A stretch of 64,000 bases of DNA, taken from IMG/VR virus record IMGVR_UViG_3300027706_000278. The stretch is one strand, 5' to 3'. The notes under the pieces are model-generated. The model saw nothing but the letters and a program-made list of their open reading frames with translations. It had not been told where the DNA came from and searched no databases. This DNA is from an uncultured virus (IMG/VR IMGVR_UViG_3300027706_000278). Its lineage: Duplodnaviria; Heunggongvirae; Uroviricota; Caudoviricetes. Both the position numbers and the translations under genes were made by a program. This document shows, in pieces, positions 11,940-32,743 of this stretch; position 1 is the stretch's first letter; each line of letters opens with the position of its first letter.

Positions 11940-12544
11940 AGATTGTCGCCGTCCACACGCTGCACGAATGCGGGGCTTACTCCAAGTCCGAACACTGGCG
12001 GCGCACGCGTAAGCAGATTCATGACGCGGTTCGGAAATGTGAATGGCCACCAGGCAGCGGTTCGTTCACGATCTACCCGCAGAGCGGTAAGAAGTCTGGC
12101 GAAGGAAACGGGGTCAAGCCAATCCGAGATTGTTTTATCGCTGATCTGAAAAAGCGTGGGTGGACCATCGAGGGGAGAGCTAAGAACGCTCTTGATCAGG
12201 CACTCGGGGACTTCGACGCGGTACTGGCCGGCCCCGAGAAGCCGATCGTAGTGGAGTGGGAAACGGGGAACATCTCGTCATCCCATCGCTCCATGAACAA
12301 GCTGACGATGCTGGCGGCGGATGGTGTGATATCGGCTGGCGTACTGGTCGTCCCCTCGCGGAAGCTCTATGTGTACCTGACCGATCGCATCGGCAATATT
12401 CAGGAATTGGAGCCTTATTTCCCGTTGTGGAGGTCAGTGCCCTGCCGATCTGGGGTGGTAGAAATTATCGTCATCGAGCACGATGCTGAAAGCTTCGATG
12501 TCCCGCGCATTCCCAAAGGAACGGACGGTCGCGCAAAGGGTTAG
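11936..12544 (+). CDS. BamHI-family Type II restriction endonuclease (predicted GGATCC)
   Basis: WPPGSGSFTI, NGVKPI, EWETGNISSSHRSMNKL, YLTDRIGNIQELEPYF and IPKGTDG closely follow R.BamHI motifs. Confidence 0.9.
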   Translation: MKIVAVHTLHECGAYSKSEHWRRTRKQIHDAVRKCEWPPGSGSFTIYPQSGKKSGEGNGVKPIRDCFIADLKKRGWTIEGRAKNALDQALGDFDAVLAGPEKPIVVEWETGNISSSHRSMNKLTMLAADGVISAGVLVVPSRKLYVYLTDRIGNIQELEPYFPLWRSVPCRSGVVEIIVIEHDAESFDVPRIPKGTDGRAKG

Positions 12545-13476
12545 TCCTCAACGAAATCGTCATTCCGATGGGAGTGAATTTCTCCTGTCTCCAGCCGTTC
12601 GACTATGTCGGGTGCGAAGTCGATCTCGGCTCCGATCCAGCGTCGATCCTTCTTCTCGCAAACAGCGAACGTGGTTCCACTGCCGCCAAATGGATCCAGG
12701 ACCAGTTCGCCCGGCATTGTGGTCATCTCCACCACGCGATCCAGGATCTTCGTCGAAAGTGCGTTCGCTGGCCGGTCCTTCGATTTAAATTTCCAGTGGC
12801 GCACGGGCGGGATGTCGGTCCAGACGTCCTTGAGGTTGACGCCTTTAGGGTTCATGGCGTCGCGGTGCCCACCGTAATCCTTTACCTCTTTTCCGCAGTG
12901 GCGACAGGTAAGGATCGGCGTCCGGATTTTGCGAAAGGTCTTGGCCTTACCCTTGGTGTAGTACAGGAGGCTGTAATGGCTGGGGTGCAGCCGGCCAGGG
13001 ATCGGCAAGCAGGCGCTTATCTCGATGGCGATCCAGTGGCGGAATTCCATCCCGATCTCGGTGAGATAAGCCCCCAGGAGGATATTCCATTTGGGCAGGT
13101 TGTATAGAAAGAACGCGCCGCCCGGCTTCAGCGTCCGAACGCATTCCTTTACCCACAGCTTGCACCACGCGACGTATTCTTCATCGGAACGGAGGTCATT
13201 GGAGTTCTTACCGTACTCCTTGCCCAGATTGAATGGGGGATCCGCAAACACGGTGTCGACCACTCCGTCCCGGACGTGTGGCAAGAGGGCCATGCAATCG
13301 CAATCGTACAGCGCTCCAAGCGCCGATACATAATGCGGGCGTGGCGCACGGTCGGCCACCGCCAAGGAAACGTCGAATTTCCGCTCATCCCACTTCAGGG
13401 CTGACTGACGGGCACGCATAGGACCACCCATCATAACCCAAGATGGGTTTTGGAACCAAGGTCCGGCCTCCTTCAT
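12541..13476 (-). CDS. Beta-class amino-methyltransferase, M.BamHI-like (probably m4C)
   Basis: Motif IV DPPF precedes motif I DPFGGSGT; convergent with the REase. Confidence 0.9.
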   Translation of the reverse strand: MKEAGPWFQNPSWVMMGGPMRARQSALKWDERKFDVSLAVADRAPRPHYVSALGALYDCDCMALLPHVRDGVVDTVFADPPFNLGKEYGKNSNDLRSDEEYVAWCKLWVKECVRTLKPGGAFFLYNLPKWNILLGAYLTEIGMEFRHWIAIEISACLPIPGRLHPSHYSLLYYTKGKAKTFRKIRTPILTCRHCGKEVKDYGGHRDAMNPKGVNLKDVWTDIPPVRHWKFKSKDRPANALSTKILDRVVEMTTMPGELVLDPFGGSGTTFAVCEKKDRRWIGAEIDFAPDIVERLETGEIHSHRNDDFVED

Positions 13477-16156: not shown

Positions 16157-16873
16157 CTATCGTTGTCTTCTCGCGGTTGTTTCAGTGAACAGTCCAGGAA
16201 AGGTTTCTTCGACACTCGCAAGCAACCGCTCTGCGTCCTGATCGCCGGCCTTCTGTGCTGAGTCGCGGAGATCGCGGAGTTTTTGGCGCTTCGCTGCCGG
16301 AGGGGTATGGTCAAAAACGCCGAATGCGGAATACACGTGAATGAGGTCGCGGTCCTGCAGAGGCCCTTCACTCCAGCGGGCAAAAAGTCTGCTCGCACGC
16401 AATTCTGCGATTTCGGCCTTGAAGTCGACATCTCTTGCGATTGTTTTGCGGACTCCCCTTTGTTTGCGCGGAGCCTCTGTTGCCTCACCCAGGCCGATAT
16501 TACCGACCTGAGGTGATCCGATGCGTCGAAGCAACTCCAAGACCAGGGCGTGGCCCTGCGGCGTCAGGGCAAATCCGCCCTTGTTGGTGCCCGATACCCA
16601 ACCTCGGTACTTTGGGCGGCACTGTAGCAGTGATCGAAGCGTGCGGTTCGCATCCGGGAAGTCGGGGAAAAAGTCCATTCCGAAGCGGGATGGAAATAGC
16701 CGGTGATTCAGAACGGTTATGGCTTCTACGGTCGGTCGAAGGCCCCACTCCCGCAGCCAGTGAAGCGAGTAGACCGTGAGCGCAGCAAGCTGCTCATTCT
16801 CATAGCGTTCGATCGGAAGGGCGCGAACGTTCAGCAGCTCTCTCTCGTTTTTCAAGGTCAGCGGTCTTGCCAT
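16157..16873 (-). CDS. Winged-helix hypothetical protein
   Basis: FPSRFGMDFFPDFPD...GWVSGTNKGGFALTPQG wHTH-like wing. Confidence 0.7.
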   Translation of the reverse strand: MARPLTLKNERELLNVRALPIERYENEQLAALTVYSLHWLREWGLRPTVEAITVLNHRLFPSRFGMDFFPDFPDANRTLRSLLQCRPKYRGWVSGTNKGGFALTPQGHALVLELLRRIGSPQVGNIGLGEATEAPRKQRGVRKTIARDVDFKAEIAELRASRLFARWSEGPLQDRDLIHVYSAFGVFDHTPPAAKRQKLRDLRDSAQKAGDQDAERLLASVEETFPGLFTETTARRQR

Positions 16874-16894
16874 TTGTCCACAGCCCCCGTCCGT

Positions 16895-17380
16895 TTATTT
16901 CTTCCGCTTCTGACCCTTCCGCGTTGCTCGTCGGCGACGTGAGGGCACCTCAGGTACACCCCAGGCGCGTAATGCATAAAGGCCGCGTCCGATGCGACAG
17001 ACTTCCGCCGAGCGAGCCAAATACACGATGACGTTTGCGTCATTGCCCTTTCCCGGAATAGGAATTCCCCGTCGCGACAGTTCGGCTCGTAGCTCCGAGA
17101 TGTGGACCGGTTCCCCGCGCTCCTGGAGGATACAGATTGCCCCCTGTTCGATTGGATGGACCGATGCCCGCGCCGTCGAATCCGCCGATGTTGAAGATGC
17201 AGGCGAGGCTTCCGAGGAGCGGGACCCATTGGTGGCGGCAGCCAATAGCGCTTTCAGGGCTGTCTGGCGACGGGTGTCGACCCCGATCTCCCCACGCAGG
17301 CGAGCAATCTCAGCCGTGTTTTCGCGAATGTGCTTCGTGACCTCCTCCAGCCAAGCTTCTACTGTTTTTTCATCTACCAT
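16895..17380 (-). CDS. Coiled-coil + HARE-HTH-like winged-helix protein
   Basis: ILQERGEPVHISEL...RIGRGLYALRAW. Confidence 0.7.
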   Translation of the reverse strand: MVDEKTVEAWLEEVTKHIRENTAEIARLRGEIGVDTRRQTALKALLAAATNGSRSSEASPASSTSADSTARASVHPIEQGAICILQERGEPVHISELRAELSRRGIPIPGKGNDANVIVYLARSAEVCRIGRGLYALRAWGVPEVPSRRRRATRKGQKRKK

Positions 17381-17390
17381 TATACATATA

Positions 17391-17419
17391 TAATTAGCAT
17401 CGTACGAGATTCTTGTCAA
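17391..17419 (-). promoter_or_regulatory. Sigma70-like promoter of the GHKL operon
   Basis: TTGACA-17 nt-TAATTA with a TGn extension, in an AT-rich patch. Confidence 0.6.
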
Positions 17420-17532
17420 GATTGTAGCATTCTATGACCGGGTCCGTTTGCCCTAGCTACGGATCGCTGGTGTGCGAGCGATCAGGGAGTTCTGCCTGGG
17501 CACCAGCGGTGGCGGATCCCGTCGCCAAAAAA

Positions 17533-17563
17533 TACCATGGCCCTGCGAATTACCACGGCCCTG
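17533..17563. repeat. Arm-type direct repeat TACCAYGGCCCTG x2
   Basis: Copies at 17533-17545 and 17551-17563. Confidence 0.5.
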
Positions 17564-17645
17564 TGCAGGAATAACGCCGCCCGTTCTGCTTCTCGAGCGC
17601 CGGCGCTTCACTTTTGATGTAAGGTATTGAAAACAGGCATATTGT

Positions 17646-17674
17646 TGGTAGCGCTTAACGGGAATCGAGCCCGC
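17646..17674 (-). other. Degenerate tRNA 3'-end-like att core next to the phage integrase
   Basis: GCGGG-CTCGATT-CCCGT T arm followed by TAAGCGCTACCA. Confidence 0.5.
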
Positions 17675-17707
17675 TAGGCGTCTGCTTGCCGGCGCCCTGC
17701 AACCATT

Positions 17708-19039
17708 TCACGCTGCCGCCTCCTTCTTCCTCATCTCGATCACCTTGGCCTTCGCCTTCTCCATGCGCTCCTGGATGGGCCGCGTGGTCTCCTCCTGGCG
17801 CTCGACGGGGATGAAGGTATAGTCGCCGGTCATGGTGAGCGTGGCGTGGCCGGCGATCTTGCTGGCTTCGATGGCGCTGGCCTTGCCGACGCCCTGCCGC
17901 CACGTGATGTTGGCGCGCCGGAAAGAGTGCAGGCCCATGCCGGGGAAATCGAGGCCCGGATGGTTCTTGTCGGCGTTCCTGGGCTTGCAGGCGCGCGCCG
18001 CCAGTTTCAGAACCTTCCGGACGCCCGAATCCCACATGGGTTGATTCGGGTCGCCGTTGTGCCGCCCGCCATGCTTATCGTCCTGAGCGAAAATCCAGGC
18101 ATCCGGCTTGGTGATCTCCTTCTTGGCGATCCACTCCTTGTACCGTGCCGTGAGCGCGCCCAGCGCCAAGAGGCGCTTGCTGTTCTTCGTCTTGGGCTCG
18201 TCTATGTCACCGCGGCAATGCCGTTGCGCGATCCTGATCGTGCCGGCCTCCGGATCGAAGTGCTTCAATTGCAGGCCGACCGCCTCGCTAATGCGCGTGC
18301 CGGTGTACAAGCAGGTTTCGCAGATCAGCAGGTGCGGGTCCGGCAGGTGGCTGAAGATCCAGGCGGTCTCCTCGGGCGTATAGATGCGCTTCTCCCGCAC
18401 CGTCCATTCCTTGCCGATCTTCACCCACTGCATCGGGTTGGCATACGAGCGCGGGATGACGTTCCACTCCTGTGCGCGGGTGATCATTCCGCTCATGATG
18501 TTGCGCAGGTCGAGCATCATGTACCAGGACGAGCATTCGTGGTGGAGCCAGTCGAGAACCGCCTTGCTGTCGTTCAGATCCGACAGGCGCGCGTCCTTCC
18601 AGCGCGGCAGGATATGGTTGTCCAGCCGGTCGTTGTACTTCTCGCGCGTCGGCTTCGCCAGTTTGACCTTGGGATTATCGACGTAATCCCGGCGCCACAA
18701 CTCTGCGAGCCTGATGATTTGCACGTCGCCGGGCTGCGACTCCTGCGGCTTGGCGGGCGGCGGCGCCGTTTCCGATGGCGGCTGCGGTGGTGCGGGCACG
18801 AGCAGTCCGTTCGGCCCCCTTACCAACTTCCCTACGAAGAACTCGTCCCGCTTGTCGCGCGCCTGCTGGCGCGTCATCGGATGGTCCTTGTCGCGGCTCG
18901 GGCCGATCTTGACGAAGGGCCGGGTGGTCTTGATCGACCCATCCGGCTGGACCTCATCCTTGCGATAGCGGAAGTACCAGTAATACTTCCCGCGATCCTT
19001 CCGCTCAACCACGTCGGGGCGCTGGTGTCTCTCTTTCAA
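17708..19039 (-). CDS. Phage tyrosine integrase
   Basis: TGTRISE, HSFRR, AGH, TGDY; TTG start after AGGAGG. Confidence 0.9.
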   Translation of the reverse strand: MKERHQRPDVVERKDRGKYYWYFRYRKDEVQPDGSIKTTRPFVKIGPSRDKDHPMTRQQARDKRDEFFVGKLVRGPNGLLVPAPPQPPSETAPPPAKPQESQPGDVQIIRLAELWRRDYVDNPKVKLAKPTREKYNDRLDNHILPRWKDARLSDLNDSKAVLDWLHHECSSWYMMLDLRNIMSGMITRAQEWNVIPRSYANPMQWVKIGKEWTVREKRIYTPEETAWIFSHLPDPHLLICETCLYTGTRISEAVGLQLKHFDPEAGTIRIAQRHCRGDIDEPKTKNSKRLLALGALTARYKEWIAKKEITKPDAWIFAQDDKHGGRHNGDPNQPMWDSGVRKVLKLAARACKPRNADKNHPGLDFPGMGLHSFRRANITWRQGVGKASAIEASKIAGHATLTMTGDYTFIPVERQEETTRPIQERMEKAKAKVIEMRKKEAAA

Positions 19040-19123
19040 CTGTGGGCCTCCTGTCAACCACGTCAGGAGGCTACCTTCGTGTTGGGACATACGCAAGCCT
19101 AACCATTGCAAGGATTTACGCGG

Positions 19124-20821
19124 CTACAGCGGGATCGCCATATTGCTCGCCTGGCCGCAGATGTAGAGCTTTTCGCGGGCGCGCGTTGCGCCCACGTAGA
19201 ATTGGCGCATCACCGAATCGCGCGGCGCGCCGCCACGGGCGTACTGCGCATCGCCCGCCTGGCTGAGATCCGGAAACAGGTACACCACATCGGCCTGGCC
19301 GCCCTTGACGGAGTGGATCGTGCCAACCAGGACCTGCGGCGTATCCAGCAAGGCCCCAGGCCCGCCACGGCGCGCGACGTCGGCGGGAAACTCGACGCGC
19401 CTGCGGCCGTCCTCGGTTAGGCGCGCCTGCCACCACTTGAGGAGTGCGGCCGATCCGGCGTCCCAGGCCGCCATCATCTGGTCGAGCGCTTCCGCCTCGA
19501 ATATCTGGGCCAGATGGTCCATGGTCACCGGCGTCGTCACATCACCCGCCTTGAGCTTCGCCTTAACGCCGTGACGCAGGATGCCTTTGGCCTGCATCAA
19601 CTCGGCCCACAGCGCCAGGTCGCCATGTGTCCACGCGCGGTGCCCCTCGCCGTAATCGGGATGGCCGATGAGCAGAGACAGAATGCGGTTGGGGGTTGAT
19701 GACCGCTTGCCGACCCGCAACGGGTTCCAGAAGCCATTGGAGCGCCGGTAGGGATTGTGGAAGGGAATGCCCTCTTTGCGGAGGACCTGGATCAGACCCT
19801 TCAGCATGTATGAGCACGACACCAGGAACATCACCGTCTGGCAGCCTTCGATATGCTGCGTGGCGGTCTTCAGGATCTCGTACTCAGTGCGGTAGCAGGT
19901 ATCGGCCTTGCTCAGGCGTTCGAGCGCCCCGTCTTCGGCGCGCGGCAGATATTCCTTCGGCTGGCGTAGCGTGACCTTCCGGATCAGCGCCTCGGCGAAC
20001 CGATGCACGGCGCGCGGCACGCGGTACGACTGCTTCAGGATGATCTTGTGGTCCTCGGGGATCTCTGGCTTCAGAAACGCCTCCGGCGTGGCGCCGGCAA
20101 AGGAATAGATGGTCTGGTCGTCGTCGCCCGCCACGATGAAATAGCTGGCGCGCTCGCCCCACTTGCGAACCAGCGACAACTGCATCCGGTTGAGGTCCTG
20201 CGCCTCGTCCGCGAAGATGACGGCGGGGTTGTGGGGCGCCATGGCCACGTCGCGGAGGCACTTCTCGATCAGGTCCGTGAAGTCCAGCAGGCCGTTGGCC
20301 TCCTTGTACTGTGTCCACAGCGCCTCGAACTTGAGCAGGTTAGCCGGCCAAGTGTGCTTAGGAAGCATCAGCCCGCGGAACCGGCCCAACTGTTCCAGGA
20401 AGGCATCGCCGGCCTTCTCCTGGTCGCTGTCCTCGACCGCCTCCTCGCCGTCCAGCTTCCCCGGGCGCTTCTGCGGCGTAATTGTGAGGTGCGCGTGATC
20501 CTTATTCCACTCCTCCACGTTCGCCTCCGCGATCTCCGGCCCGCCGAGGGCGTGCCAGCAGTGGGAGTGCAGCGTGCCCACGCGATCCGAGGCGACGGGC
20601 AGATTGCGCCCGGCGAGCTCCGCTGCGGCGGCGCGCGAGAAGGACGTGACAAGCACCGCATCGGGGCCGAAGCGATCCACGGCGCGCTGGATCTGGCGTG
20701 TGAGATTCGTCGTTTTTCCTGTTCCTGTTCCCTTCCGTCAAGGCGGGCCGAAGATGCGGAATTCCCGCGTCTCTTCGGCCCGCCCCTCCGCAGTCTCCTG
20801 GATTTGATCGGCGGTGATCAC
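19124..20821 (-). CDS. UvrD/Rep SF1 helicase with an in-frame UGA (20738-20740) inside Walker A
   Basis: FRIFGPP*RKGTGTGKTT, then DEAQD, GDDDQTIY, QSYR, TIHSVKGGQ, YVGATRA. Confidence 0.85.
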
Positions 20822-20854
20822 TTCTTCTTCCTTTCGCGCCCTCCGGGATTTAAT

Positions 20855-22687
20855 TCACTGGACGACGACATGGATCGCCTCTTCGGGCCGGATCTTCTTG
20901 GGGTCGAACTCGGGATACGGCAGCGCGCGCCGGATCTGGTCATATCCCTGGCCCTTGACCCGATGCTCGGTGCCGCCGACCGCCACCAGCATGGAGGCGG
21001 CCTGGCGCGGGGACACGTTCTCGCAGGTCGTCTTGATCAGGTACGCCCGGAAGTCGAGCGTGGAGACGGCGATCCTGCCGTCGTCCAGGATGATCGGCTT
21101 ACGCTGATTCTGGACTCGCTCTTCCTCGATGGAGGCGATGAATCCGGTCTCGCGGAGGTAGTTCACGATATGCATGCGCGCGCCACGCACGAGGTCCTCC
21201 TCGTCGGTCGGCTCCTCGATGTAACAGGCCTTGAGCATGCGCCGCTTCACTTCCTCCCACAGCGCGGGCTTGAAGTGCGGGATCGGCTCGTTCGTCGCGT
21301 TGCCGATCGCCTCATAGATGACTTGCTGGTTCGTGAACTTGCCGAAGCCGGCGATGTCGATCACGCTGCCATCGGCGAGGACGATCTGGTAAGTCGGCTC
21401 CTTGCCCTTGATTTTGCGGAACTTCACGATGGGCGTCCGGAGCAGTTTGGCGAGCTCGGCGCAGAGCTTATCCTTTTCTTCAGGCGACAACGCCTTGACA
21501 GTGGTGTTGGCCGCCTGCGGTTGTTCCGGCGCAACAGGGGCCGCATGTGGCGCAACGGGGCCGGTCGTGGACGGCGGGCTGGCCGGCGCGTCGCTGAAGG
21601 CGGTGTCGCCCATGGCGGCGTGCCCGTTGGCGATTTCCTGGGCGATGGCTGTTTCGGCCTCCTCAGCCGTCATGGGTGCCGGGACGCCGCCTGTCTTGCG
21701 CATGGCCGTCGCGATGGTGCGCTCGAAGTAGTCGATCTTCGTCCGATGGGTCCGCGCGTACAGGCTCCGGTGGTGGACGATCAGCGTGATGATCTCCTGC
21801 TCGGAGAGGCCGGCGTCCACGCCGAAGCAGGCGAGCGCCAGGTCGTACCCGCTCTGGCTCGTGTCCTCCATGTCATATCGCTGCTTCAGCCACGTGGCCC
21901 GGAAGCGCGGGTCTTCGTGCATCCAGCCGTCGATGCGGTCCTGCGAGATACGCTGCCGGAGATCAACGATGAGATGTTTGCCCTCGAACTGCTGCTTCCA
22001 ATCGGGCGGCAGTGCGGCCTGGTCTTTGGGCGCGCCGCCCTCAACGTCCGGGCCCAGGAACTCCTCGAAATCGGAGAAATTGTAGCGGCGGTCGGTCACG
22101 GACAGGACCGTCACGTCTTTGGGATTCTTCGGGTCCTTCAGGTTCCGCGTGCCGGGGATGCGCAGGATACGCGCCAAGTCCGCGAGCTTGTCATATGTCC
22201 AGCCGTGGGCGGCGGCGTTGAGTTCGAGCATCTTGTGCCAGCGGGTCAACAGGCGCGCGGCCGCCTGGCGCTCGGCGTCGTTCTCGAAGTTCAGCGGTTC
22301 CTTGAACAGCCACCACGGATGCAGGCCGTTGCCGGTGGACACGATAATCGACGGCGGCATGGCGGCCGGCACGATCTTGAGCGCGTCGGGAATGGTCGCC
22401 GGGAGCGCCTTCTTATGCGCCTGGGACAGCAGGTCGAGGTCGGTCCCGATCCCCGCCAAGCCGGTAATCTCGTCCGACTTGCAACGGCGCGCGGGGCCGT
22501 ACTGCTGCTTCGAGCAGCCGACGCCGACGTATACGTCCTTCTGCTGGCCAGTGCTGGCGGCGAACTCGGCGGCCTTCGCCGGGTCCAGGAACCAGCACGA
22601 GCGCTTGTCCGGCCACGTCCACAGCAGGATGTACTGATCCTCCGGCTTGTATTGCCACAGGAGGCTCAGGAAATCGTGCGGAGTCAT
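20855..22687 (-). CDS. RepB-like/AEP primase-type replication protein
   Basis: DLD, STGNGLHPWW, RILRIPGTRN, SQSGYDLALA. Confidence 0.8.
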   Translation of the reverse strand: MTPHDFLSLLWQYKPEDQYILLWTWPDKRSCWFLDPAKAAEFAASTGQQKDVYVGVGCSKQQYGPARRCKSDEITGLAGIGTDLDLLSQAHKKALPATIPDALKIVPAAMPPSIIVSTGNGLHPWWLFKEPLNFENDAERQAAARLLTRWHKMLELNAAAHGWTYDKLADLARILRIPGTRNLKDPKNPKDVTVLSVTDRRYNFSDFEEFLGPDVEGGAPKDQAALPPDWKQQFEGKHLIVDLRQRISQDRIDGWMHEDPRFRATWLKQRYDMEDTSQSGYDLALACFGVDAGLSEQEIITLIVHHRSLYARTHRTKIDYFERTIATAMRKTGGVPAPMTAEEAETAIAQEIANGHAAMGDTAFSDAPASPPSTTGPVAPHAAPVAPEQPQAANTTVKALSPEEKDKLCAELAKLLRTPIVKFRKIKGKEPTYQIVLADGSVIDIAGFGKFTNQQVIYEAIGNATNEPIPHFKPALWEEVKRRMLKACYIEEPTDEEDLVRGARMHIVNYLRETGFIASIEEERVQNQRKPIILDDGRIAVSTLDFRAYLIKTTCENVSPRQAASMLVAVGGTEHRVKGQGYDQIRRALPYPEFDPKKIRPEEAIHVVVQ

Positions 22688-23217
22688 GCGGTCAACTCCA
22701 CATAACGGTTGAGGAACAAATGGCGCGCTGCCCTCGGGGGCAAAGGCTCGATCCAGAGGTTCGGCACGGGCACGGTGCCACATTCCTCTTTGATCCACCG
22801 GATATCCGTCGCCGTGGTCACGTCGCGGAACTCGGTCGCCAGCATCGCCTTGTCGGCGATCATCACGGAGCGGGGCATTTCCGGCCGCAAGCCGAACCGC
22901 TGGCAGATCGCGACCATGAGGCGGCCTTCCGCGATCCGGTACGCGGTCATCTGTGGATCGGCCTTGATTGGCGCTGGGATATCGCAGAGATACGCCTCGC
23001 TCGCATCATGCAGTAGGCCCCAGAGCCCGTCCTCGGGCGGCACCAGGCGGCTGACGTGGACCGAATGCTGCGCCACGGAGTAGAAGGCTTTGGTATGGCC
23101 CACGAAGCGGCACAGGTGCGACAGGGACCGTGCGATGTCAAAGATGCTGATCTCGTCCGGCGAGGGATTGAGCGGATGAATCTGCCGCCCCATATAAGTG
23201 CGGAAGTAGTTGGTCAT
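22684..23217 (-). CDS. HD-domain phosphohydrolase (YfdR/YfbR-like)
   Basis: CRFVGH, YSVAQHS, LLHDASEAY. Confidence 0.9.
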   Translation of the reverse strand: MTNYFRTYMGRQIHPLNPSPDEISIFDIARSLSHLCRFVGHTKAFYSVAQHSVHVSRLVPPEDGLWGLLHDASEAYLCDIPAPIKADPQMTAYRIAEGRLMVAICQRFGLRPEMPRSVMIADKAMLATEFRDVTTATDIRWIKEECGTVPVPNLWIEPLPPRAARHLFLNRYVELTA

Positions 23218-23219
23218 GC

Positions 23220-23486
23220 TTACCAGAGCCCTCCCTGGTTCTGTCCGCGCGGGCGCGAAGCTGCACGGGCTGGGGCTTCACTCTTCTTTTCCGACTCCTC
23301 AACCACCACTGGCGCGGTCGCCAGCCACTTATCCCATGCGACCCACCGCTGGCCGTTCCAGACGGTGATGGTCGCGTCGTCCATCGGCGCGTCGGCGGGG
23401 ATTTGCTCCAGGAGCGACGCCCGGCGATGCTCGACCTGGGCCTGTTGCTCCCGGTACTGGCGCAGCGCTTCGCGGCCGTAAATCAC
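23220..23486 (-). CDS. Hypothetical protein
   Basis: GTGA-coupled start VIYGREAL. Confidence 0.6.
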   Translation of the reverse strand: MIYGREALRQYREQQAQVEHRRASLLEQIPADAPMDDATITVWNGQRWVAWDKWLATAPVVVEESEKKSEAPARAASRPRGQNQGGLW

Positions 23487-23995
23487 GCCTGCGCTCCTTT
23501 CGGTGAGGCGAGATCCAGCAGCACTTGTTCGGGGATGGGCCGCGGCTTTATGATCCGCGACAGCATGAGGATCTCGTGCAGCGTCGGCAGTTCGCACTTG
23601 CCCACCCACGGGCTGCGCCCGGTGAGCATGATGCTCCTCTTCCCGCGCACCTCATCCATAGGGAGGAGCCACATCACGCCGCTATCCGCTTCCACGGCCA
23701 GGAGCAAATCAAACTCATGGCCTTCGTACGGGATCTTCACGTCCTTGTGGGAGGCGCGATGAGCCTGCTGTTTACACGTCTTCACTTGGACGCTTCCGGC
23801 TTTCACTTTCGCCGCCTTGACCTGCACACGCTTGTAGTCTTCCCCTTCGAGCTTGACCAGCAGGTCCCATCCCTTCTGTGCAATCCCAATAGGCAACGGA
23901 ACGGCGATTTCGTAACCCTGGCGGGCAAAAGCGAGGCAGGCCAGAAGCTCCGTGTACGTTGAGAGGCCCCGCGACAACGTTCCCGTACCGTTCAC
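23483..23995 (-). CDS. PD-(D/E)XK endonuclease, homing-endonuclease-like
   Basis: ELLA...GYEIAVP...WDLLV...RVQVK...FDLL. Confidence 0.75.
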   Translation of the reverse strand: MNGTGTLSRGLSTYTELLACLAFARQGYEIAVPLPIGIAQKGWDLLVKLEGEDYKRVQVKAAKVKAGSVQVKTCKQQAHRASHKDVKIPYEGHEFDLLLAVEADSGVMWLLPMDEVRGKRSIMLTGRSPWVGKCELPTLHEILMLSRIIKPRPIPEQVLLDLASPKGAQA

Positions 23996-24159
23996 GCTGC
24001 CTCCAGTTCTGCGGCGGTAAAAGCAGCGCCACATTCGGGGCACTCGTACCATTCGTCATGCCAGCGCTCGTAAGGGCCGCAGTCCATGCCGTGCGTCTCG
24101 ACGCTGTCAGCTTCCCGAAAGCGCATCATGACGTCCTCACCGCATTCCGGGCAGATCAC
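23992..24159 (-). CDS. Small zinc-ribbon protein
   Basis: CPECG x2; RBS GAGGGAG. Confidence 0.6.
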   Translation of the reverse strand: MICPECGEDVMMRFREADSVETHGMDCGPYERWHDEWYECPECGAAFTAAELEAA

Positions 24160-24181
24160 GTGGTCTCCCTCAAGTGCGAGT

Positions 24182-24409
24182 TCACCGCTCGGCCTCCAGG
24201 AGCATCCGGTAGCCGTCGCGAATGCGCGTGCCGACCCGATGGCGCGCCATGTACTCGTGGCAATCCAGATCCACGTCCGGCTTGGCGCCCATGTTGGCGG
24301 CACAGTCGGGGCAGACCTTGCTCGCGACGGTCTTGTTGCGCGACCACAGCGCGACGTTATGGTGTGCCACGAACGGCTTCTTGCAATAGAGGCACAGAGG
24401 CTCGTTCAT
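24182..24409 (-). CDS. Small Zn-binding protein
   Basis: CLYC, CPDC; ATGA-coupled. Confidence 0.65.
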   Translation of the reverse strand: MNEPLCLYCKKPFVAHHNVALWSRNKTVASKVCPDCAANMGAKPDVDLDCHEYMARHRVGTRIRDGYRMLLEAER

Positions 24410-24828
24410 GCGGCCTCCCGATCAAAGTGGCGATGGCCGCACAAGGGGCAGCGCTCGGGCGCCTCCTCGCCGCGCCAGCAATAGTTGTGACAGCCCGTGC
24501 AGGTCCACACCGGCTCGTGCTTTACCAGGCCGAGGATGGCGAGCGCCTCGGCCGCGTTATGCGCCACGCCGACAATGGCGCCGCCCTCGATCCGCCACTC
24601 GCGCAGGCGCTCCGTCTGGAGGGGAGTCAACTGCGAGCAGGGCGCGCCCGGCCGTTTGACCTCGATCTCGAAGTGCTTGCCGCGAATGGTGCCATACAGG
24701 TCGGGGTCGCCGGCCTTGCCCATGACCGTGCCGTGGCGCTTGCGGACGACCACGCCGGGATACTTGCGCAATTCGGCCACGATCTGCGCGACGATGAATT
24801 TCTCCAGCGGGGGCTGTTTCCTGGGCAT
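24406..24828 (-). CDS. VRR-NUC nuclease with C-terminal rubredoxin-like ribbon
   Basis: GDPDL...FEIEVK...LTPLQ; CTGC/CPLC. Confidence 0.85.
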   Translation of the reverse strand: MPRKQPPLEKFIVAQIVAELRKYPGVVVRKRHGTVMGKAGDPDLYGTIRGKHFEIEVKRPGAPCSQLTPLQTERLREWRIEGGAIVGVAHNAAEALAILGLVKHEPVWTCTGCHNYCWRGEEAPERCPLCGHRHFDREAA

Positions 24829-24833
24829 CTGCC

Positions 24834-25022
24834 TCACGGGCGCACCTCCGCTGGCTGTTCCTCCGTGCGGCGGGTCGGACCGAAGATGCCGAACTGGATG
24901 GGCGAGATCCGGCGCGTGCCGCACTTGGAGCACGTCTGCACATCGACGTTGCGCTGGCCGTCGAACTCGGGCCAACGCCGGGGGAAGCCCCAACTATGGC
25001 GGCAGAGCCACTTGAAGGGCAC
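24834..25022 (-). CDS. Small prophage Zn protein
   Basis: LCRHSW...CSKCG. Confidence 0.6.
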   Translation of the reverse strand: MPFKWLCRHSWGFPRRWPEFDGQRNVDVQTCSKCGTRRISPIQFGIFGPTRRTEEQPAEVRP

Positions 25023-25024
25023 GG

Positions 25025-25516
25025 CTATTTGCCCTCCTGCTTGCGGTACACCGTGGCCTCGCGCCCGCGGCCCTGCTTCACGACCTCGATGTCGCCGGCC
25101 TTGGCCATGGACGTGAGCGCCAGGCTGATGCTGGCCTTGCGCTGCTTCTCGAACTCCGGATGCCGGATCTTGGGCGTCGAGGGCATGTGCTCGATGGACT
25201 TGGTGAACACGTCGTGGACGGTGAACTCGCGGTTCGCCGGCATCGCGGTCACGTACTCGCGGACGCGCTGCATGCCGACGTAATGTTTCTCGCCCGCATC
25301 GCCCTTATTGCCGTTGGGCACCGGCACGCCGTTCTGCACGGCCATGCCCACCACCACGTCCTTCATCAATTCCTGCGTCGCCGGGTCTTCGAGCAGGTAG
25401 TACATCTGCTCCAGCTTGGCGATCTTCTGCTCCTCGGCCTCGGCCTGGCGCAGATAGACCTCTCGCTGCTCCTGCGTTTCGGAGATGCGTTCAAGGATGT
25501 TTTCGAGCACGTCCAC
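25025..25516 (-). CDS. Coiled-coil + winged-helix protein
   Basis: LTSMAKAGDIEVVKQGRGREATVY wing. Confidence 0.7.
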   Translation of the reverse strand: MDVLENILERISETQEQREVYLRQAEAEEQKIAKLEQMYYLLEDPATQELMKDVVVGMAVQNGVPVPNGNKGDAGEKHYVGMQRVREYVTAMPANREFTVHDVFTKSIEHMPSTPKIRHPEFEKQRKASISLALTSMAKAGDIEVVKQGRGREATVYRKQEGK

Positions 25517-25527
25517 GGCTTCCCTCC

Positions 25528-25641
25528 CTACCGCCTCGCCCCGCCGTACAGGCCGAGGATGGCCCGCTTCATGCCGTGCAGTGCCGTCGCCAGCGCCGCG
25601 CTCGTCTTCGCCTTCATCGTCGTTTTGCTCTTACTTGCCAT
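25528..25641 (-). CDS. 37-aa basic peptide (not in the ORF track)
   Basis: AAGGAG RBS; MASKSKTTMKAKTSAALATALHGMKRAILGLYGGARR. Confidence 0.55.
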   Translation of the reverse strand: MASKSKTTMKAKTSAALATALHGMKRAILGLYGGARR

Positions 25642-25663
25642 CTCGTTTCTCCTTGGTGAATTT

Positions 25664-25740
25664 CGGCGGGTGCCGGGCTGGTGCCGTGTCGGACTTCGGT
25701 CGTTTAACGGGGCGGCTCCTAACTCCGCTCCCGCCCGCCG
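25664..25740. ncRNA. Putative 77-nt cloverleaf-like structured RNA
   Basis: 7-bp closing stem CGGCGGG/CCCGCCG with three internal hairpins, one with a C(UUCG)G loop. Confidence 0.45.
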
Positions 25741-25747
25741 CCGTGGG

Positions 25748-26599
25748 CTATTCCTTCTCCGTGCTGCCGACCAGCAGCGGGATCGCCGTCTCCTTCTCGA
25801 TGCGCTGCCGGATCTCGCTCAGCGCGTCCTCGACGAACTTGTGCGGCCGGACGATCTCGAACCAGAAGCAGAGCTTCGAGTCCTGAAGCCGCCAGCGCAG
25901 CCGCACCGGGATGCGGTACGCGGGACCATTCATGTGGACCGAGATGCCGAGCACGATCTGCGCCGGCAGTTCGATGGTGCCCTTCTGCGGCGTGTTGCGG
26001 ACATCCTCGTCGTACTGGAATTGGATCTGACCGTTGTCGAGCCGCATGCCCGACGAGAAGGTCACGTTCTTCTTGGCTTCGAATCGGAGCGCCGCCTCGA
26101 GCAGCTCCGCGCTCTTCGGCTCGGCGATGTCCGGAAGGTTCTCCTCCAGGAACCGCGCGAACTCGACCTGCGTGAGCTGCTTGCGGTTGACGCCCATCCA
26201 GGTCTCAAACTCCACGCTGCGGCGCGGCTTGTACGTCGCCTGGTGCTCGCACCACGAGGGCTTGTCGATCTCGTGATAGTCGAACGCCGCATTGAATTCC
26301 TCCTGCTGGGCGTCGAAGAAGATGAGCGTGCTGCCGGACATGAACTCCTTCACGTAGGAGATGAAGGAATCGGTGTCGTACAGCCAGACCTGCTGCTGGA
26401 TGCGCCGAGGCCGCGGCAGGAAGGATTCGAGGTCCTTGACCGCGTAATCCTTGGGCACCACGGTGAACACGCCGGCGCCGGGAAGCTCGGTCGGCACGGT
26501 GCGCGGTTCGCCGAGGGCCGCGCCGGCAGCAATGGCCGACTGGACGTCGCCGATCTCGACCGGGCCTTTCGTTTCGTTGTACTGGTAATCGCGGGACAC
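25748..26599 (-). CDS. DUF2303 / YfdQ-family protein
   Basis: QVEFARFLEEN, FSSGMRLDNGQIQFQY, VRLRWRL. Confidence 0.85.
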   Translation of the reverse strand: MSRDYQYNETKGPVEIGDVQSAIAAGAALGEPRTVPTELPGAGVFTVVPKDYAVKDLESFLPRPRRIQQQVWLYDTDSFISYVKEFMSGSTLIFFDAQQEEFNAAFDYHEIDKPSWCEHQATYKPRRSVEFETWMGVNRKQLTQVEFARFLEENLPDIAEPKSAELLEAALRFEAKKNVTFSSGMRLDNGQIQFQYDEDVRNTPQKGTIELPAQIVLGISVHMNGPAYRIPVRLRWRLQDSKLCFWFEIVRPHKFVEDALSEIRQRIEKETAIPLLVGSTEKE

Positions 26600-26935
26600 T
26601 TACACCACCTCCTTGAGTTGCTTCGGCTGCTGCTCGATATCGACGACGCGCAGCGGGAGCATCTCCTGCTTCGGGTCGTTCCGGACGAGGCGGTTATCGT
26701 CGGTGACATAGAAGATCGCCACCCGCCGATCCGGTTCGGGCAATTTGGTTTTCACTTGGGACTGCACGGTCACCACGTCCGTCGCGCCCTTGCTCGCGGG
26801 CGCGACCTTGATGGTGAGCGTGAGAGTCCCGCTTTTTCCGACCTCCCGCACGGCGGCGGTGAGGTTCCGGAGCGCCTCGCCCAGTTCGGCGACGGTCACT
26901 CCCTTGTCGATCTCGAAAACGGTCTGGGGGAACAT
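26600..26935 (-). CDS. YfdP-like phage protein
   Basis: AVREVGKSGTLTLTIKV...IFYVTDDNRLVRNDPKQ; typical DUF2303 partner. Confidence 0.7.
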   Translation of the reverse strand: MFPQTVFEIDKGVTVAELGEALRNLTAAVREVGKSGTLTLTIKVAPASKGATDVVTVQSQVKTKLPEPDRRVAIFYVTDDNRLVRNDPKQEMLPLRVVDIEQQPKQLKEVV

Positions 26936-26937
26936 GG

Positions 26938-27630
26938 CTATTCGTTGTCCTCCGTAACGCGATCCGCGAAGCCCTGCGCGAAGGCGCGCATCTCCTCGGC
27001 GCTGGCGATCTCTTCCGGCGACAGCTTGCGGACAAACTTCACGGCCGCCTTGCCGTATACCTTGCCCTGCGGGTTCTGCGCCTTCTCCAGTTCGAAGCGC
27101 AGGATGCAGTGGTGGTACTGGATGCCCTGCGTCACCAGCCGCACAAAGAACTGGCGCACCGCCTTGAGACTGGTGGGCGGGATCGACAGCACTTCGGGCA
27201 GCCGCGAGGAGCCGTGCGCGATGAGCAACTGGCGCGACTCCTTGCAGGCCTGGGCCTCGCCGGCGCTGCCCCATTTGGCGAGCGGGCACTTGGCGCACTC
27301 GCCGCCAGGAGTCCCCTGGCCGGTCTTGCCATCGCGCGACGAGCAGTCGGGCGGGACCTTGCCGGCGTCCTTCGACTGGTAGTACGTCCGGCTTTTCCGG
27401 TCGTACAGGACCACGCACTCGATGGCCGGTTCGGTCTTGTCGCCCTCGACGACATCCGAGATGAGCCACTGGGCCATGCCGGGGGTGACCTTGATGCGCG
27501 GCAAATCGAATTCCGTGATCGTGCCGTCGCGGCAGTTGGTGTCGAACGCCGCCATGACCTCCTTGCGCTCTTCGTCGGGCATGGTGAGCACAAGCGGCGC
27601 GCCAATGTTCTTTACAAGTTCGTGAGACAT
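26938..27630 (-). CDS. Phage ssDNA-binding-like protein
   Basis: PPDCSSRDG...CAKCPLAKWGS...ACK...LSIPPTSLK; located in the replication module. Confidence 0.6.
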   Translation of the reverse strand: MSHELVKNIGAPLVLTMPDEERKEVMAAFDTNCRDGTITEFDLPRIKVTPGMAQWLISDVVEGDKTEPAIECVVLYDRKSRTYYQSKDAGKVPPDCSSRDGKTGQGTPGGECAKCPLAKWGSAGEAQACKESRQLLIAHGSSRLPEVLSIPPTSLKAVRQFFVRLVTQGIQYHHCILRFELEKAQNPQGKVYGKAAVKFVRKLSPEEIASAEEMRAFAQGFADRVTEDNE

Positions 27631-27648
27631 GCTTCTCCTTTCGTGAAA

Positions 27649-27894
27649 TCAGTACTCTCTGCTGCGAAACTCGAACTGCGATTCGGGAGGCACCTTCTCG
27701 CGCCACGGCTCAGACCGCACGACGGGCCACTCTGGACCCCACACGCGGCGGAAAAGCTCGTGTTGCTCGGGGCTGAAGTGCGCCTCGTGGACCTCGACAA
27801 CGATCCGGCCGGCGTAATCGGTTTCCACGCGCCGGTATCCCTTAGCGCGGAGATCCCGGACCTTGCGCCTGCGAATCGCCTCTTCCTGGGACAT
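27649..27894 (-). CDS. Hypothetical protein
   Basis: AGGAG RBS; co-oriented. Confidence 0.6.
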   Translation of the reverse strand: MSQEEAIRRRKVRDLRAKGYRRVETDYAGRIVVEVHEAHFSPEQHELFRRVWGPEWPVVRSEPWREKVPPESQFEFRSREY

Positions 27895-27901
27895 GGTTCT
27901 C

Positions 27902-28360
27902 CTACGCTTTCCTGGTGCTGCTGAGCTTGTGAATGATCGAGATCTTCAGGACGGCCTGGAGCGGGGCCGGGAGCGCCGCCCGCAAGTCGTCGTCGGTCAC
28001 GATGCGCTCCGCGCGCGTGGCGACCTGCCGCAGTTCCTTCCAGATCTCGCGCACGTAAGCGGTGAGCGACTGGGTGTTGTAGTTCTCCGCGACATATTGG
28101 CCCAGCTCCGACTGCTTCAGCGCATCGACGACCTCCTCGCGGTCGTTGAGCGGGCTGGCGTACACATCCGGATAGATCGAGAGCGTGCGCTTGGCGCCGT
28201 CCACCTCGACGGTCATCGAGGGCACACCCTCCTCGATGAACATGGGGATGATGGTCCCCTCAAGTTCGTCGAGGCGCTGCTGAGTCGCCTTGAGATCCGC
28301 GTTCAAGTCGCGCTTGTGGTTTTCAAGGGACACAAATTCCCTGAGCGGTTCGAGATTCAT
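27902..28360 (-). CDS. Hypothetical coiled-coil phage protein
   Basis: 152 aa ORF in the operon. Confidence 0.7.
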   Translation of the reverse strand: MNLEPLREFVSLENHKRDLNADLKATQQRLDELEGTIIPMFIEEGVPSMTVEVDGAKRTLSIYPDVYASPLNDREEVVDALKQSELGQYVAENYNTQSLTAYVREIWKELRQVATRAERIVTDDDLRAALPAPLQAVLKISIIHKLSSTRKA

Positions 28361-28384
28361 TACCGGCTTGTCCTTTCCTGCCTG

Positions 28385-30118
28385 TTAGTTCTTGATCTCC
28401 GCGAGGATCGACTCCACGATGTCCTGGCGCTTTGCCAGCGCACGGATCACCTTCACGTCCACCGTGTTCCTCGCGACCAGGTGGATATGCGTTACCGGCC
28501 TCTCCTGGCCAGGCCGGTGGGTGCGCTTCTTGGCCTGCTCATACTTCTCCAGGCGGAAGCCGATCGAATAGAAGATCGAATAGCGCGCGCGCACAAATTC
28601 CACGCCCTCGCTGCCCGATTCGATCTGTACGGCGAGCACCTGCGCCTCGCCGTTCTGCCAGCGCCGCAGCTCGTCGCGCCGGCCGGAGAGTTCCATACTC
28701 GAATAACCGTTCTGCTCGCACGCCTTGTGAACGGCGTCGAGATCCGCGTGGAACCGGCAGAACACGACCACCGGCTCCTCCTTGCCGATGTCCTCCAGGG
28801 TGTCGGCCAGGAGCTTCAACTTGCTCGAATCGATGCGATGGACGCCGCCGTCGTCGGTGGGCACGCAGCCGCCAGTCACCTGCTGGAGGCGCAGCAGCTT
28901 CACCATCGCGTTGGCCGCCGTGACCGTGCCGTCTTTCACGCGCGCCACGAAGTCCTCGTCGAGGTCCTTGTAAATCCGGGCGGCCTCGCCGGTGAGCGCG
29001 CAGTGATAGGTGACCTCTGTAGCGGGCGGCAGGTCCAGGACCTCGGGGCCGACACGGAACGTGATCCGGCCCATGAGCCTTTCCAGTTCCTCGATGTTCT
29101 GGTAGCCGGTGATCTGCTTGCGCTGATAGCCGCCCATAACGGCGTACTTCTGACGGAACGCGGAGAACGAGGGCCCGAGGATCGAGATGTCCAGGAACCG
29201 GAACACCGCATAGATGTCCATGGGGCCATGCGGCATGGGCGTCCCGGTGAGCGCCAGGCGGTAGCTCGCGCGGGTGCGCAAGCGCTTGAACTCCATTGAC
29301 GCCTTGCCGCCCGGCGTCTTCAGCCGGTGGGCCTCGTCGGCGATGACGAGATCCCAAAACAGGCTCTCGGCCCAGGACGCGAACGGTTCGCGCCATGCGG
29401 AGTCGTAATTGACGACCGCCACAAAGGGAACATTGCGGGCGCGCGCCAGTTTCATCTTCTCCGCGGCCAACTCCCGCTTCTGTGCGACCGACCCGGCGTC
29501 CTCATCAAGCGCGACAATCACAACCGGGATACCCACGTGTCGGGCGAACTGCGCCTGCCACACCTGGATCACCCGCAGGGGGCAGGCAACAATCATGCAG
29601 AACGGGTTGTCCCGAGGCTCCTTGCGCGCCGCCAGCGTCAAGGCCAGTGCGCAGGCCACGAGGCTTTTGCCCGTGCCCATGCCCATGGCCAGGAGGAGGC
29701 CGTGCATGCCAGCCCCGAATCTGTCCATGCAGAACCGGAAGGCAGCCCTCTGGTGCCGCCATAGCGGAGTGAGGATGCCCGGAATGATGATGTCCGGCTC
29801 GGGTATCACCACCTCCGGCACGACCACGGGCGCGGAGGAGGGAGCGGTGACCAACGCGCCCGTGGCAGGAGGCGGGGGAACGATAGCCCCGGTGCCGGAA
29901 ATCAATGCGTCGAACTCGGGCGTCGTCTGGATCGCGCGCAGCTTCGCCAGCAGTTTGCGCGCGTTGCCCTCAGTCGCCGGCCAGAGCCACGCGCGGTGAA
30001 GGTTCCCCCACCGCCCGCCGAGGCGCTGCATGAGCAGCAAGTCGGCGAGCGACGGTGGCACGACCTGGATGCGGCCGTCCTTCACGCTCACGTGCGTCGG
30101 CTGGACCGGCAGTCTCAT
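28385..30118 (-). CDS. SNF2-family helicase/ATPase
   Basis: MGMGTGKS, DEAH, ALTGTP, QAKKRTHRPGQ. Confidence 0.92.
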   Translation of the reverse strand: MRLPVQPTHVSVKDGRIQVVPPSLADLLLMQRLGGRWGNLHRAWLWPATEGNARKLLAKLRAIQTTPEFDALISGTGAIVPPPPATGALVTAPSSAPVVVPEVVIPEPDIIIPGILTPLWRHQRAAFRFCMDRFGAGMHGLLLAMGMGTGKSLVACALALTLAARKEPRDNPFCMIVACPLRVIQVWQAQFARHVGIPVVIVALDEDAGSVAQKRELAAEKMKLARARNVPFVAVVNYDSAWREPFASWAESLFWDLVIADEAHRLKTPGGKASMEFKRLRTRASYRLALTGTPMPHGPMDIYAVFRFLDISILGPSFSAFRQKYAVMGGYQRKQITGYQNIEELERLMGRITFRVGPEVLDLPPATEVTYHCALTGEAARIYKDLDEDFVARVKDGTVTAANAMVKLLRLQQVTGGCVPTDDGGVHRIDSSKLKLLADTLEDIGKEEPVVVFCRFHADLDAVHKACEQNGYSSMELSGRRDELRRWQNGEAQVLAVQIESGSEGVEFVRARYSIFYSIGFRLEKYEQAKKRTHRPGQERPVTHIHLVARNTVDVKVIRALAKRQDIVESILAEIKN

Positions 30119-30360
30119 GCAGCACGTTCCTCCTGGCACATTTCGCGCAGGCGCCGGATCGCTTCGCGCTTCACGGCTTCGAGCCGTGCGGAGACGCCCT
30201 CGCCATTGCAGAACTTGGTTGCCCACCGGAGCGTGATGGGCTTGCCGCCGAACTCCGGCTCGGCGCTGACCGCGACCATCATCTGCGGCACGCCTCTGTG
30301 GTCGCGATTCTTGCGCGGCCGGCGTTTGGAGACACGTTTCCTGTATGTCGTGTACGCCAT
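30115..30360 (-). CDS. Small basic hypothetical protein
   Basis: ATGA-coupled to SNF2. Confidence 0.55.
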   Translation of the reverse strand: MAYTTYRKRVSKRRPRKNRDHRGVPQMMVAVSAEPEFGGKPITLRWATKFCNGEGVSARLEAVKREAIRRLREMCQEERAA

Positions 30361-30518
30361 GCTTATCTCGTCAGCCTTCGTGCAGGGACACTTCAGGCGT
30401 GCGACGTGGTCCTCACCGGATTAGAGCGCCGGGGAATGCCGCCAGGCGTTCTGCCTGCGGCGTCGCTCGCCTCTCGCGGGAAGCGCCCTGAAGGGCCGCA
30501 CTCTCGAACTACAATGCA

Positions 30519-31348: not shown

Positions 31349-31351
31349 GGC

Positions 31352-32726: not shown

Positions 32727-32743
32727 CGTGTCCTACGGCTTGA

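Follow-up and report, generated by a model that had tools for sequence, protein, structure and literature searches.

A stop-led gap within the Walker A motif of a prophage helicase gene and its probable crossing by programmed translational bypassing

The described system closest to the locus presented here is bacteriophage T4 gene 60 with its mobA neighbour, where a conserved replication enzyme (a topoisomerase) is split by an untranslated gap of 50 nt that ribosomes have been proven to bypass from a Gly take-off codon. Refolding of the mRNA behind the ribosome is described as promoting forward sliding (PMC11194080; bioRxiv 2024.12.09.627546), and the gap as protecting the gene against MobA by blocking self-cleavage and as persisting after loss of the nuclease (bioRxiv 2022.08.31.505936, Manning & Atkins). 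Here we analyse a DNA stretch of 64,000 nucleotides from an uncultured virus of the Caudoviricetes (IMG/VR record IMGVR_UViG_3300027706_000278), hereafter the window, whose minus strand carries a gene for a UvrD-like superfamily 1 (SF1) helicase with a Walker A motif that is whole only if 15 nt are skipped. We consider that programmed translational bypassing probably joins the two segments of this gene into one helicase and that the arrangement was probably inherited from a homing-endonuclease cassette like that of T4 mobA/gene 60, a reading supported by comparison of sequences.

Several features are common to gene 60 and to this helicase family: a take-off codon followed at once by a stop codon, folding of the mRNA in the wake of the ribosome as the proposed drive of forward movement, an HNH-type endonuclease gene adjoining the gap, a gap that outlives loss of the nuclease, and spread of the alleles by recombination. 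However, we saw no sequence relationship between the two systems, and they differ in their target (topoisomerase versus helicase P-loop), in gap length (50 versus 5-24 nt), in their take-off codons (Gly versus the second of two Pro codons) and in the position of the main hairpin, which in the helicase family includes the take-off codon and is confined to the region 5' of the stop. Unlike in gene 60, many helicase alleles, including that of the window, lack a matched landing codon, and the hosts are Acidobacteriota (Bryobacterales/Solibacter group) that carry the family in prophages. A 2016 review states that no natural in-frame stop-hop was known (Atkins et al. 2016, PMC5009743), and it cites 1987 work on synthetic stop-hops which make the same short hop, between matched or wobble-matched codons, as the commonest relatives of our gene would make (CCG-TAG-CCG and CCG-TAG-CTG). 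Those hops were engineered and occur at low level, whereas a helicase hop would be natural, hairpin-helped and needed for function; the 15-nt gap of the window is also longer and unmatched. The Streptomyces phage Hau3 gene for terminase, with 10-nt inserts after a rare UUA codon, is likewise a case of a short gap in an essential phage gene, and its proposed 5' stem-loop with flanking Shine-Dalgarno sequence resembles the hairpin and GGAGG motif described below; it differs by a hungry sense codon in the A site and by the few alleles known, and no endonuclease link is reported for it (Antonov et al. 2023, PMC10732093). Short inserts are bypassed as well in the mitochondrial elements of Magnusiomyces capitatus, where take-off and landing triplets often match at only two out of three positions, like CCT and ACA in the window, but the review assigns them to mitochondrial ribosomes and many genes and describes them as largely independent of mRNA context (PMC5009743).

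In the window the helicase frame opens with a GTG start (20821-20819) followed by 26 further codons, and its run into and past the gap reads TTC GGC CCG CCT, then TGA CGG AAG GGA ACA, then GGA ACA GGA AAA ACG; all features of this locus lie on the minus strand. Segment 1, from the GTG to the proposed take-off codon CCT (20741-20743), the second Pro of GPP, has 27 codons (VITADQIQETAEGRAEETREFRIFGPP; 20741-20821). An in-frame TGA with C as its next base (20738-20740) opens the gap of 15 nt (TGACGGAAGGGAACA; 20726-20740), which is purine-rich (12 of 15 bases) and includes GGAAGGG at 20730-20736. Twelve nt past the TGA the unchanged frame reads GTGKTTNLTRQI and remains open to 19124; segment 2 extends from the resume codon GGA (20723-20725) to the stop codon over 533 codons (19124-20725), and its frame matches the Pfam family UvrD-helicase PF00580 (E-value 1.7e-21) together with the UvrD C-terminal families (PF13538 and PF13361). 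Segment 1 ends in RIFGPP and segment 2 begins with GTGKT, so that removal of 20726-20740 yields GPPGTGKT in frame with the 533-codon segment, as is read without break in 44 uninterrupted homologues. A conserved SF1 helicase is split here by a stop-led gap exactly between the GPP and the GTGKT of its Walker A loop. The gap is preceded by an inverted repeat of 13 nt with 100% complementarity (20742-20754 and 20772-20784), which extends into the last Pro codon as far as its second base. Its 5' arm (GGCGGGCCGAAGA; 20772-20784) and its 3' arm (TCTTCGGCCCGCC; 20742-20754), the latter encoding IFGPP and ending within the take-off codon, enclose an inner stem of 4 bp (GCGG at 20765-20768 with CCGC at 20756-20759) closed by a loop of 5 nt (20756-20768 in all), and a GGAGG motif lies directly 5' of the hairpin (20785-20789). 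An earlier note on this DNA had pointed to the split Walker A motif, to the TGA-containing insert whose deletion restores GPPGTGKT and to the perfect repeat with its inner stem, all of which we recovered in the sequence and in its minimum-energy fold; its two caveats, that the window allele offers no cognate Pro landing codon and that readthrough would give a mis-spaced P-loop, hold too.

Contigs from three public runs belonging to three studies carry this stretch with its insert at 0 differences, some of which may be the source of this assembly, and no gap-free, joined form was found among the DNA contigs of those three studies. Other contigs in the same metagenome runs, some of them deeper than the window's own contig, match the hairpin only (window 20733-20791) and continue with a TAGCTG gap of 6 nt or with a 13-nt gap of the type seen in locus L081, which implies that several variants of the cassette co-occur in one habitat.

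Stop-led gaps recur at the same point in relatives of this helicase. A protein-guided search returned 28 related loci, 24 of them with a readable N-terminus, among which one (L016) has TGA at the same spot and a gap of 24 nt. In a DNA search with 141 nt, run against 401 genomes of the same order, a single real relative came up (G117; E-value 1.2e-13), which reads CCG-TAG-CCG, the other 33 genome matches being short and with E-values above 1e-4. A pattern anchored upstream, made of the coding sequence 5' of the stop only and fixing most of the hairpin 3' arm, occurred at 18 places in species-representative genomes, at 1 in viral contigs and at 56 in metagenome contigs; counting the window, these 76 places comprise 55 loci of this helicase, 20 unrelated sequences and the deleted helicase copy L126 considered below. 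Directly after GPP, 49 of the 55 helicase loci are interrupted and 6 are not. With a second pattern, anchored downstream and blind to the N-terminus, 51 loci were retrieved (7 interrupted and 44 not). The 49 interrupted loci represent 37 distinct sequences and 16 gap types, namely seven of 6 nt (TAGCTG, TAGCCG, TAGCCA, TAGGCG, TGACTG, TGACCG, TGATTG), two of 5 nt (TGACG, TAGCG), two of 11 nt (TGACGGAGACA, TGACGGAAACT), one of 12 nt (TGAATGGAAACC), two of 13 nt (TGACGGAAAGACA, TGACGGTGAGACA), the window's own of 15 nt and one of 24 nt. All three frames are represented, the length modulo three being 0 in 10 types, 2 in 4 and 1 in 2. The first triplet is a stop codon in 49 of 49 gaps (TAG in 29, TGA in 20) and the next base is C in 46 of them, while the 3' edge of the gaps has no conserved sequence. 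A literature search found no description of this helicase/HNH family; the supplements of preprints lay outside that search and could hold related cases.

Because the gap lengths fall in all three frames, neither readthrough nor a single frameshift would serve all alleles. Ordinary recoding would have to be chosen allele by allele, as readthrough (6, 12, 15 and 24 nt), a -1 shift (5 and 11 nt) or a +1 shift (13 nt), and would leave 2-8 extra residues between GPP and GTGKT, the window product reading GPP-x-RKGT-GTGKT. In its favour, 10 of 16 gap types are multiples of three, as readthrough would need, a preponderance that also tells against bypassing; the 5-nt types follow a run of six C, where slippage is possible, and a stop followed by C is a leaky context. 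Yet it demands three mechanisms for one cassette with one conserved hairpin, and the GxxxxGK[ST] loop, which wraps the phosphates, would differ in its insert from product to product. The hairpin, moreover, lies 5' of the stop, whereas the stimulators of readthrough and -1 shifting known to us lie 3', and the 6-nt gaps are confined, in their final position, to triplets pairable with tRNA-Pro, which readthrough does not predict. We hold ordinary recoding to be distinctly improbable. Three more specific forms of decoding were discarded. Selenocysteine insertion at the UGA is contradicted by a fold without hairpin 3' of the TGA, by the TAG used in 29 of 49 relatives and by 6 gap types that are out of frame; the prophage's own genome does carry a tRNA-SeC gene (anticodon TCA; contig C178, 37184-37277), with which the organism can decode some UGA as selenocysteine, and this is irrelevant to the gap. 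A +1 frameshift of the release-factor-2 type at CCT-TGA would enter an unrelated frame of 97 codons and not the helicase. An altered genetic code does not fit either, the upstream primase gene and the helicase segment both ending at ordinary stops. No suppressor tRNA was found in the window, and the genome scan lists three tRNA-Pro, one tRNA-Trp and one tRNA-SeC but no suppressor.

That 49 of 49 gaps begin with an in-frame stop, which would be useless to excision from DNA or RNA, argues for a mechanism acting in translation. Removal of the gap beforehand, either by cutting and rejoining the RNA beside the hairpin or by loss of the DNA in an active form of the element, would give a reason for a conserved hairpin abutting the gap, but it needs no stop as first triplet, it meets no conserved sequence at the 3' edge, and the DNA contigs of the three studies keep the gap and offer no joined form. 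We know of no bacterial system removing 5-24 nt from mRNA, and we judge this explanation highly improbable. Production of two polypeptides, i.e. a peptide of 27 residues and a helicase restarting at or after the gap by means of GGAGG or GGAAGGG, with both pieces associating or the large one working alone, would make use of the Shine-Dalgarno-like runs 5' of the hairpin and in the gap, and some 6-nt gaps do end in CTG or TTG. In the window, however, there is no in-frame ATG, GTG or TTG from the TGA to 20680, beyond the P-loop, and most gap-end triplets (CCG, CCA, ACA, AAC, GCG) are no start codons; a restart would also lose the first strand and half of the P-loop, and the position of the stop, always exactly after GPP, would be left unexplained. 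The chance that this is how the gene works seems to us very slight.

The hairpin dominates the minimum-energy fold of 20700-20830 (-50.6 kcal/mol, z-score -3.88, equalled by 1 of 200 shuffles), in which the inner stem is also present. No U-run follows it, and a role as transcription terminator was rejected. In 37 distinct interrupted sequences 11-13 of the 13 pairs are kept and the final 60 nt reach -28.8 to -38.6 kcal/mol, as against 7-11 pairs in uninterrupted alleles with the same N-terminal type (n=6) and 2-8 pairs, with -7 to -21 kcal/mol, in alleles of the other N-terminal type (SEYRIFGPP; n=25). In the set retrieved by the downstream pattern, which is unbiased in this respect, a strong hairpin accompanies 7 of 7 interrupted alleles and 0 of 41 uninterrupted ones. 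One of the six uninterrupted alleles with the 27-codon N-terminus, L122, has a nearly whole hairpin (one mismatch, -31.7 kcal/mol), the sole strong one among them, and may be a candidate for recent precise loss of the gap. Pairing was followed through an alignment of 29 distinct interrupted sequences (A1), where 93.3% of cells are paired versus 44-56% with slid partners. At pair 15-53, 21 sequences have GC and 7 have CG; the inner pair 29-41, whose columns are third positions of Thr and Arg codons so that its covariation falls on synonymous sites, is GC in 19, AU in 6, GU in 3 and otherwise in 1, this one unpaired cell (L075) having G opposite A and not A opposite C. Across the 15 pairs outside the stem base all 15 one-sided changes lead to G-U and 5 cells are unpaired, while of the two pairs at the stem base 13-55 is unpaired in 23 of the 29 sequences and 14-54 in 5. 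As G-U pairs work on the sense strand only, these changes point to a structure selected in the mRNA, and RNAalifold independently recovers the same structure. The hairpin just before the stop thus goes together with the gap and is under selection at the RNA level. The GGAGG in front of it (columns 8-12 of A1) is nearly invariant, and in 27 of 29 sequences RNAalifold pairs its last two G (columns 11-12) with the CC that opens the take-off codon; it is either a Shine-Dalgarno-like element or an extension of the stem base. As regards a nascent-peptide signal, the N-terminus is conserved (DRIxEIAE...TREFRIFGPP), but its codons are also those of the hairpin and the search pattern fixed part of them; the 27-codon N-terminus of identical type is found also in L064, L081, L120 and L136.

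The triplets at both edges of the gap provide further indications on how it may be crossed. The take-off codon is CCT in 12 of 12 loci with a gap of at least 11 nt, and CCG or CCA in 37 of 37 loci with a gap of 5-6 nt. In the window the proposed landing triplet is ACA (20726-20728), which is the last gap triplet in 6 of the 12 longer-gap loci and pairs at two of three positions with tRNA-Pro(UGG), a gene for which is present in its own genome along with those for tRNA-Pro with GGG and CGG anticodons. The 6-nt types end in CCG, CTG, CCA, TTG or GCG, five of the seven having one of the four triplets able to pair, given G-U, with the CGG anticodon; immediately ahead of the resume codon the 5-nt types have ACG or GCG and the longer ones ACA, ACT, ACC or AAC. 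From these lists it follows that most short gaps would allow perfect or wobble re-pairing, and that the long ones, including that of the window, would allow pairing at two of three positions at most. The long gaps all end in purine-rich runs (GGAG, GGAA, GGTGAG, GGAAGGG), which are obvious candidates for setting the landing place.

Under programmed bypassing, the ribosome would translate the 27 codons, unwinding the hairpin, and would pause when CCU occupies the P site and UGA-C the A site, a context (after Pro-Pro, before C) in which release would be slow. At that point the 3' arm, reaching 13 nt back from within the take-off codon, would be inside the ribosome on its exit side, and the 5' arm, already outside, could zip with it; this zipping would compete with codon-anticodon pairing, strip the codon from peptidyl-tRNA-Pro and draw the mRNA through, so that the ribosome moves forward. 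Peptidyl-tRNA-Pro would settle on ACA, 15 nt downstream, and Gly-tRNA would read GGA to give GPPGTGKT. Ribosomes that do not hop would release the 27-residue peptide, and hop efficiency would cap the helicase level. The suggestion of the earlier note that the hop gates phage replication like a switch is not supported, the comparisons speaking neither for nor against it.

The distribution of the gaps suggests that they travelled with a nuclease gene. An HNH_3 gene (PF13392; E-values from 1.8e-13 to 2.2e-8 in six examples) abuts the helicase start in many interrupted relatives, ending 61-93 nt before the upstream pattern (192 nt in one locus). Among the 44 interrupted loci whose upstream flank spans 600 nt or more, 20 have it (short gaps, 15 of 32; long gaps, 5 of 12), versus 0 of 27 uninterrupted loci (Fisher p 8e-6, a value overstated by the relatedness of the loci, which are not independent). 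A tree built from the helicase body mixes interrupted with uninterrupted alleles (14 label changes versus a minimum of 3) and places the window as sister to the uninterrupted L032 (support of 98 in the Shimodaira-Hasegawa-like approximate likelihood-ratio test; 76% identity). By DNA identity the window follows L032 across both primase and helicase, with the exception of an approximate patch of ~170 bp (20740-20910) that is unlike L032 (23-61% identity), part of which (~20749-20837) is 86-88% identical to the gapped L081. An intermingled tree together with a foreign patch is the pattern expected from a homing cassette converting its flanks. By analogy with mobA we infer that the N-terminal segment, the hairpin and the gap would be the immunity part of a free-standing HNH homing-endonuclease cassette, that the gap would break the nuclease target in the conserved P-loop DNA, and that the window prophage would have kept the gap, whereas the nuclease gene either was lost or never arrived; with the queries used, no HNH gene was detected from the primase gene to the helicase in the window. 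The earlier note had raised homing-site immunity as one possibility, and the HNH gene that immediately precedes the helicase in many interrupted relatives lends it support. The same note had proposed that variable stop-containing inserts recurring in relatives with a covarying hairpin would speak for recoding, and such inserts are what the relatives contain.

Selection on the sequence downstream of the gap bears on whether the interrupted gene is alive. The frames of 21 distinct interrupted alleles measure 531-538 codons, and the ratio of nonsynonymous to synonymous substitution rates (dN/dS) has a pairwise median of 0.21 (209 usable of 210 pairs), with, among close pairs, 0.04 for L089/L130, 0.10 for L115/L132 and 0.10 for L085/L097, the last of which differ in their gaps. 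At family level, as these ratios indicate, the downstream frame of interrupted alleles is under purifying selection. An alternative is that the helicase of the window is dead or dying, the gap being a scar from a recombined cassette patch, and that any helicase work is done by the two uninterrupted paralogues which its own genome carries on contig C2. The presence of these intact copies fits that alternative, and so do the lack of an HNH gene found here, the unmatched landing triplet, the clear decay of some relatives and the want of a close interrupted relative from which selection in the window lineage could be measured. Nevertheless, the 533-codon frame, the remainder of the P-loop and the C-terminal domains are intact, the window hairpin is perfect (13 of 13 pairs) where alleles that lost the gap show decayed stems, and the interrupted alleles of the family are constrained as described; a dead gene is in our opinion unlikely.

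A number of observations weigh against programmed bypassing, besides the frequency of in-frame gap lengths. The landing triplet of the window, ACA, is not a Pro codon and matches the take-off CCT at two of three positions at best, and the 12 loci whose gaps measure 11-24 nt all lack a matched landing codon. A single hairpin of constant position is insufficient alone to explain hops of 5-24 nt, and the repeated GGAACA leaves a hop of 9 nt conceivable in the window, although only that of 15 nt yields GPPGTGKT. The slowness of release at the stop is an argument taken from general background, and GGAGG may be mere coding sequence or stem. The 49 of 55 interrupted loci are no measure of prevalence, the pattern having fixed most of the 3' arm. 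No HNH gene was found in the genome of the window with one HNH query or in the window with six, searches that do not prove absence, and, the nearest helicase relative (L032) being uninterrupted, selection after arrival of the gap is not demonstrable for the window lineage. Some interrupted alleles carry further lesions: L063, L090 and L112 share a single TGG to TAG change at a conserved Trp (EANVDD*N) ~72 codons past GTGKT, L110 has a second stop, L093 diverges past ~370 codons, and L126 is a helicase copy with hairpin and TAG after GPP in which the whole GTGKTTNLTR stretch is deleted and the P-loop lost. The TAG of the first three, whose helicase is otherwise intact and interrupted and whose close relatives L076 and L083 keep TGG, is probably a recent nonsense mutation in one lineage.

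Other irregularities were noted in the family. L110 has a long intein-like insert directly after GDDDQ, the frame of L067 measures 822 codons versus ~533 elsewhere, and L134 gives a weak Intein_splicing match below the Pfam cut-off; the family may be an intein host too. The uninterrupted allele of L008/L183 has an in-frame TAG upstream of the P-loop where relatives have Gln (PMSNPNE*ACGTL), which reflects either a true start further downstream or a nonsense change.

As regards its surroundings, the helicase gene is preceded by a DNA polymerase/primase gene (20855-22798, minus strand; phrog_2478, E-value 8.2e-25) and followed by a prophage integrase (17708-19111, minus strand; PF00589, E-value 9.6e-11), and the tail genes elsewhere in the window (PF23845, E-value 2e-23) identify the element as a prophage. 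The primase gene and helicase segment 1 share a frame, being separated by the primase TGA (20855-20857) and 33 nt without further stop, within 20819-20854. A mini-ORF of 17 codons to which the start of the helicase had been said to be coupled does exist (ATG 20871 to TGA 20818), which covers, in another frame, the primase gene's 3' end and overlaps the helicase GTG as GTGA, but a role for it is not supported: no comparable mini-ORF stood out in the 7 relatives examined, and the overlap with the start codon results from a second helicase codon that is ATC or ATT. The window also encodes, in the prophage or its neighbourhood, a PD-(D/E)XK nuclease (23483-24052; PF11645), an SNF2-family helicase (28385-30226; PF00176), an N6/N4 DNA methylase (12541-13476; PF01555) and, at 36348-50472, three very large frames of 1292, 1431 and 1732 codons, two of them with tail-protein matches. 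No convincing direct repeats were found flanking 16800-36500, and no tRNA in the window.

Taking the family as a whole, it is tempting to speculate, with a confidence that stops somewhat short of even, that natural short stop-hops are widespread, that they would be driven by a hairpin containing the take-off codon, and that in alleles like that of the window the mRNA, through a purine-rich gap ending in ACA, rather than a matched codon would set the landing. The device of 60-80 nt could then be a portable immunity module of HNH cassettes, which would let the nuclease attack an essential gene at its most conserved motif and would outlive loss of that nuclease. Very few systems underlie what is proven about programmed bypassing; with one covarying hairpin followed by 16 natural gap variants, the family offers a ready mutational series for take-off drive, slide distance and landing without a matched codon. 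Standard pipelines will call such genes pseudogenes or split genes; in the unbiased sample 7 of 51 family members are gapped. Compact expression control is a conceivable use of a ~60-nt device in which the efficiency of the hop determines how much protein is made. Finally, the family suggests a second, independent case in which homing endonucleases would invade the most conserved motif of an essential gene by means of an untranslated gap and a bypass device.

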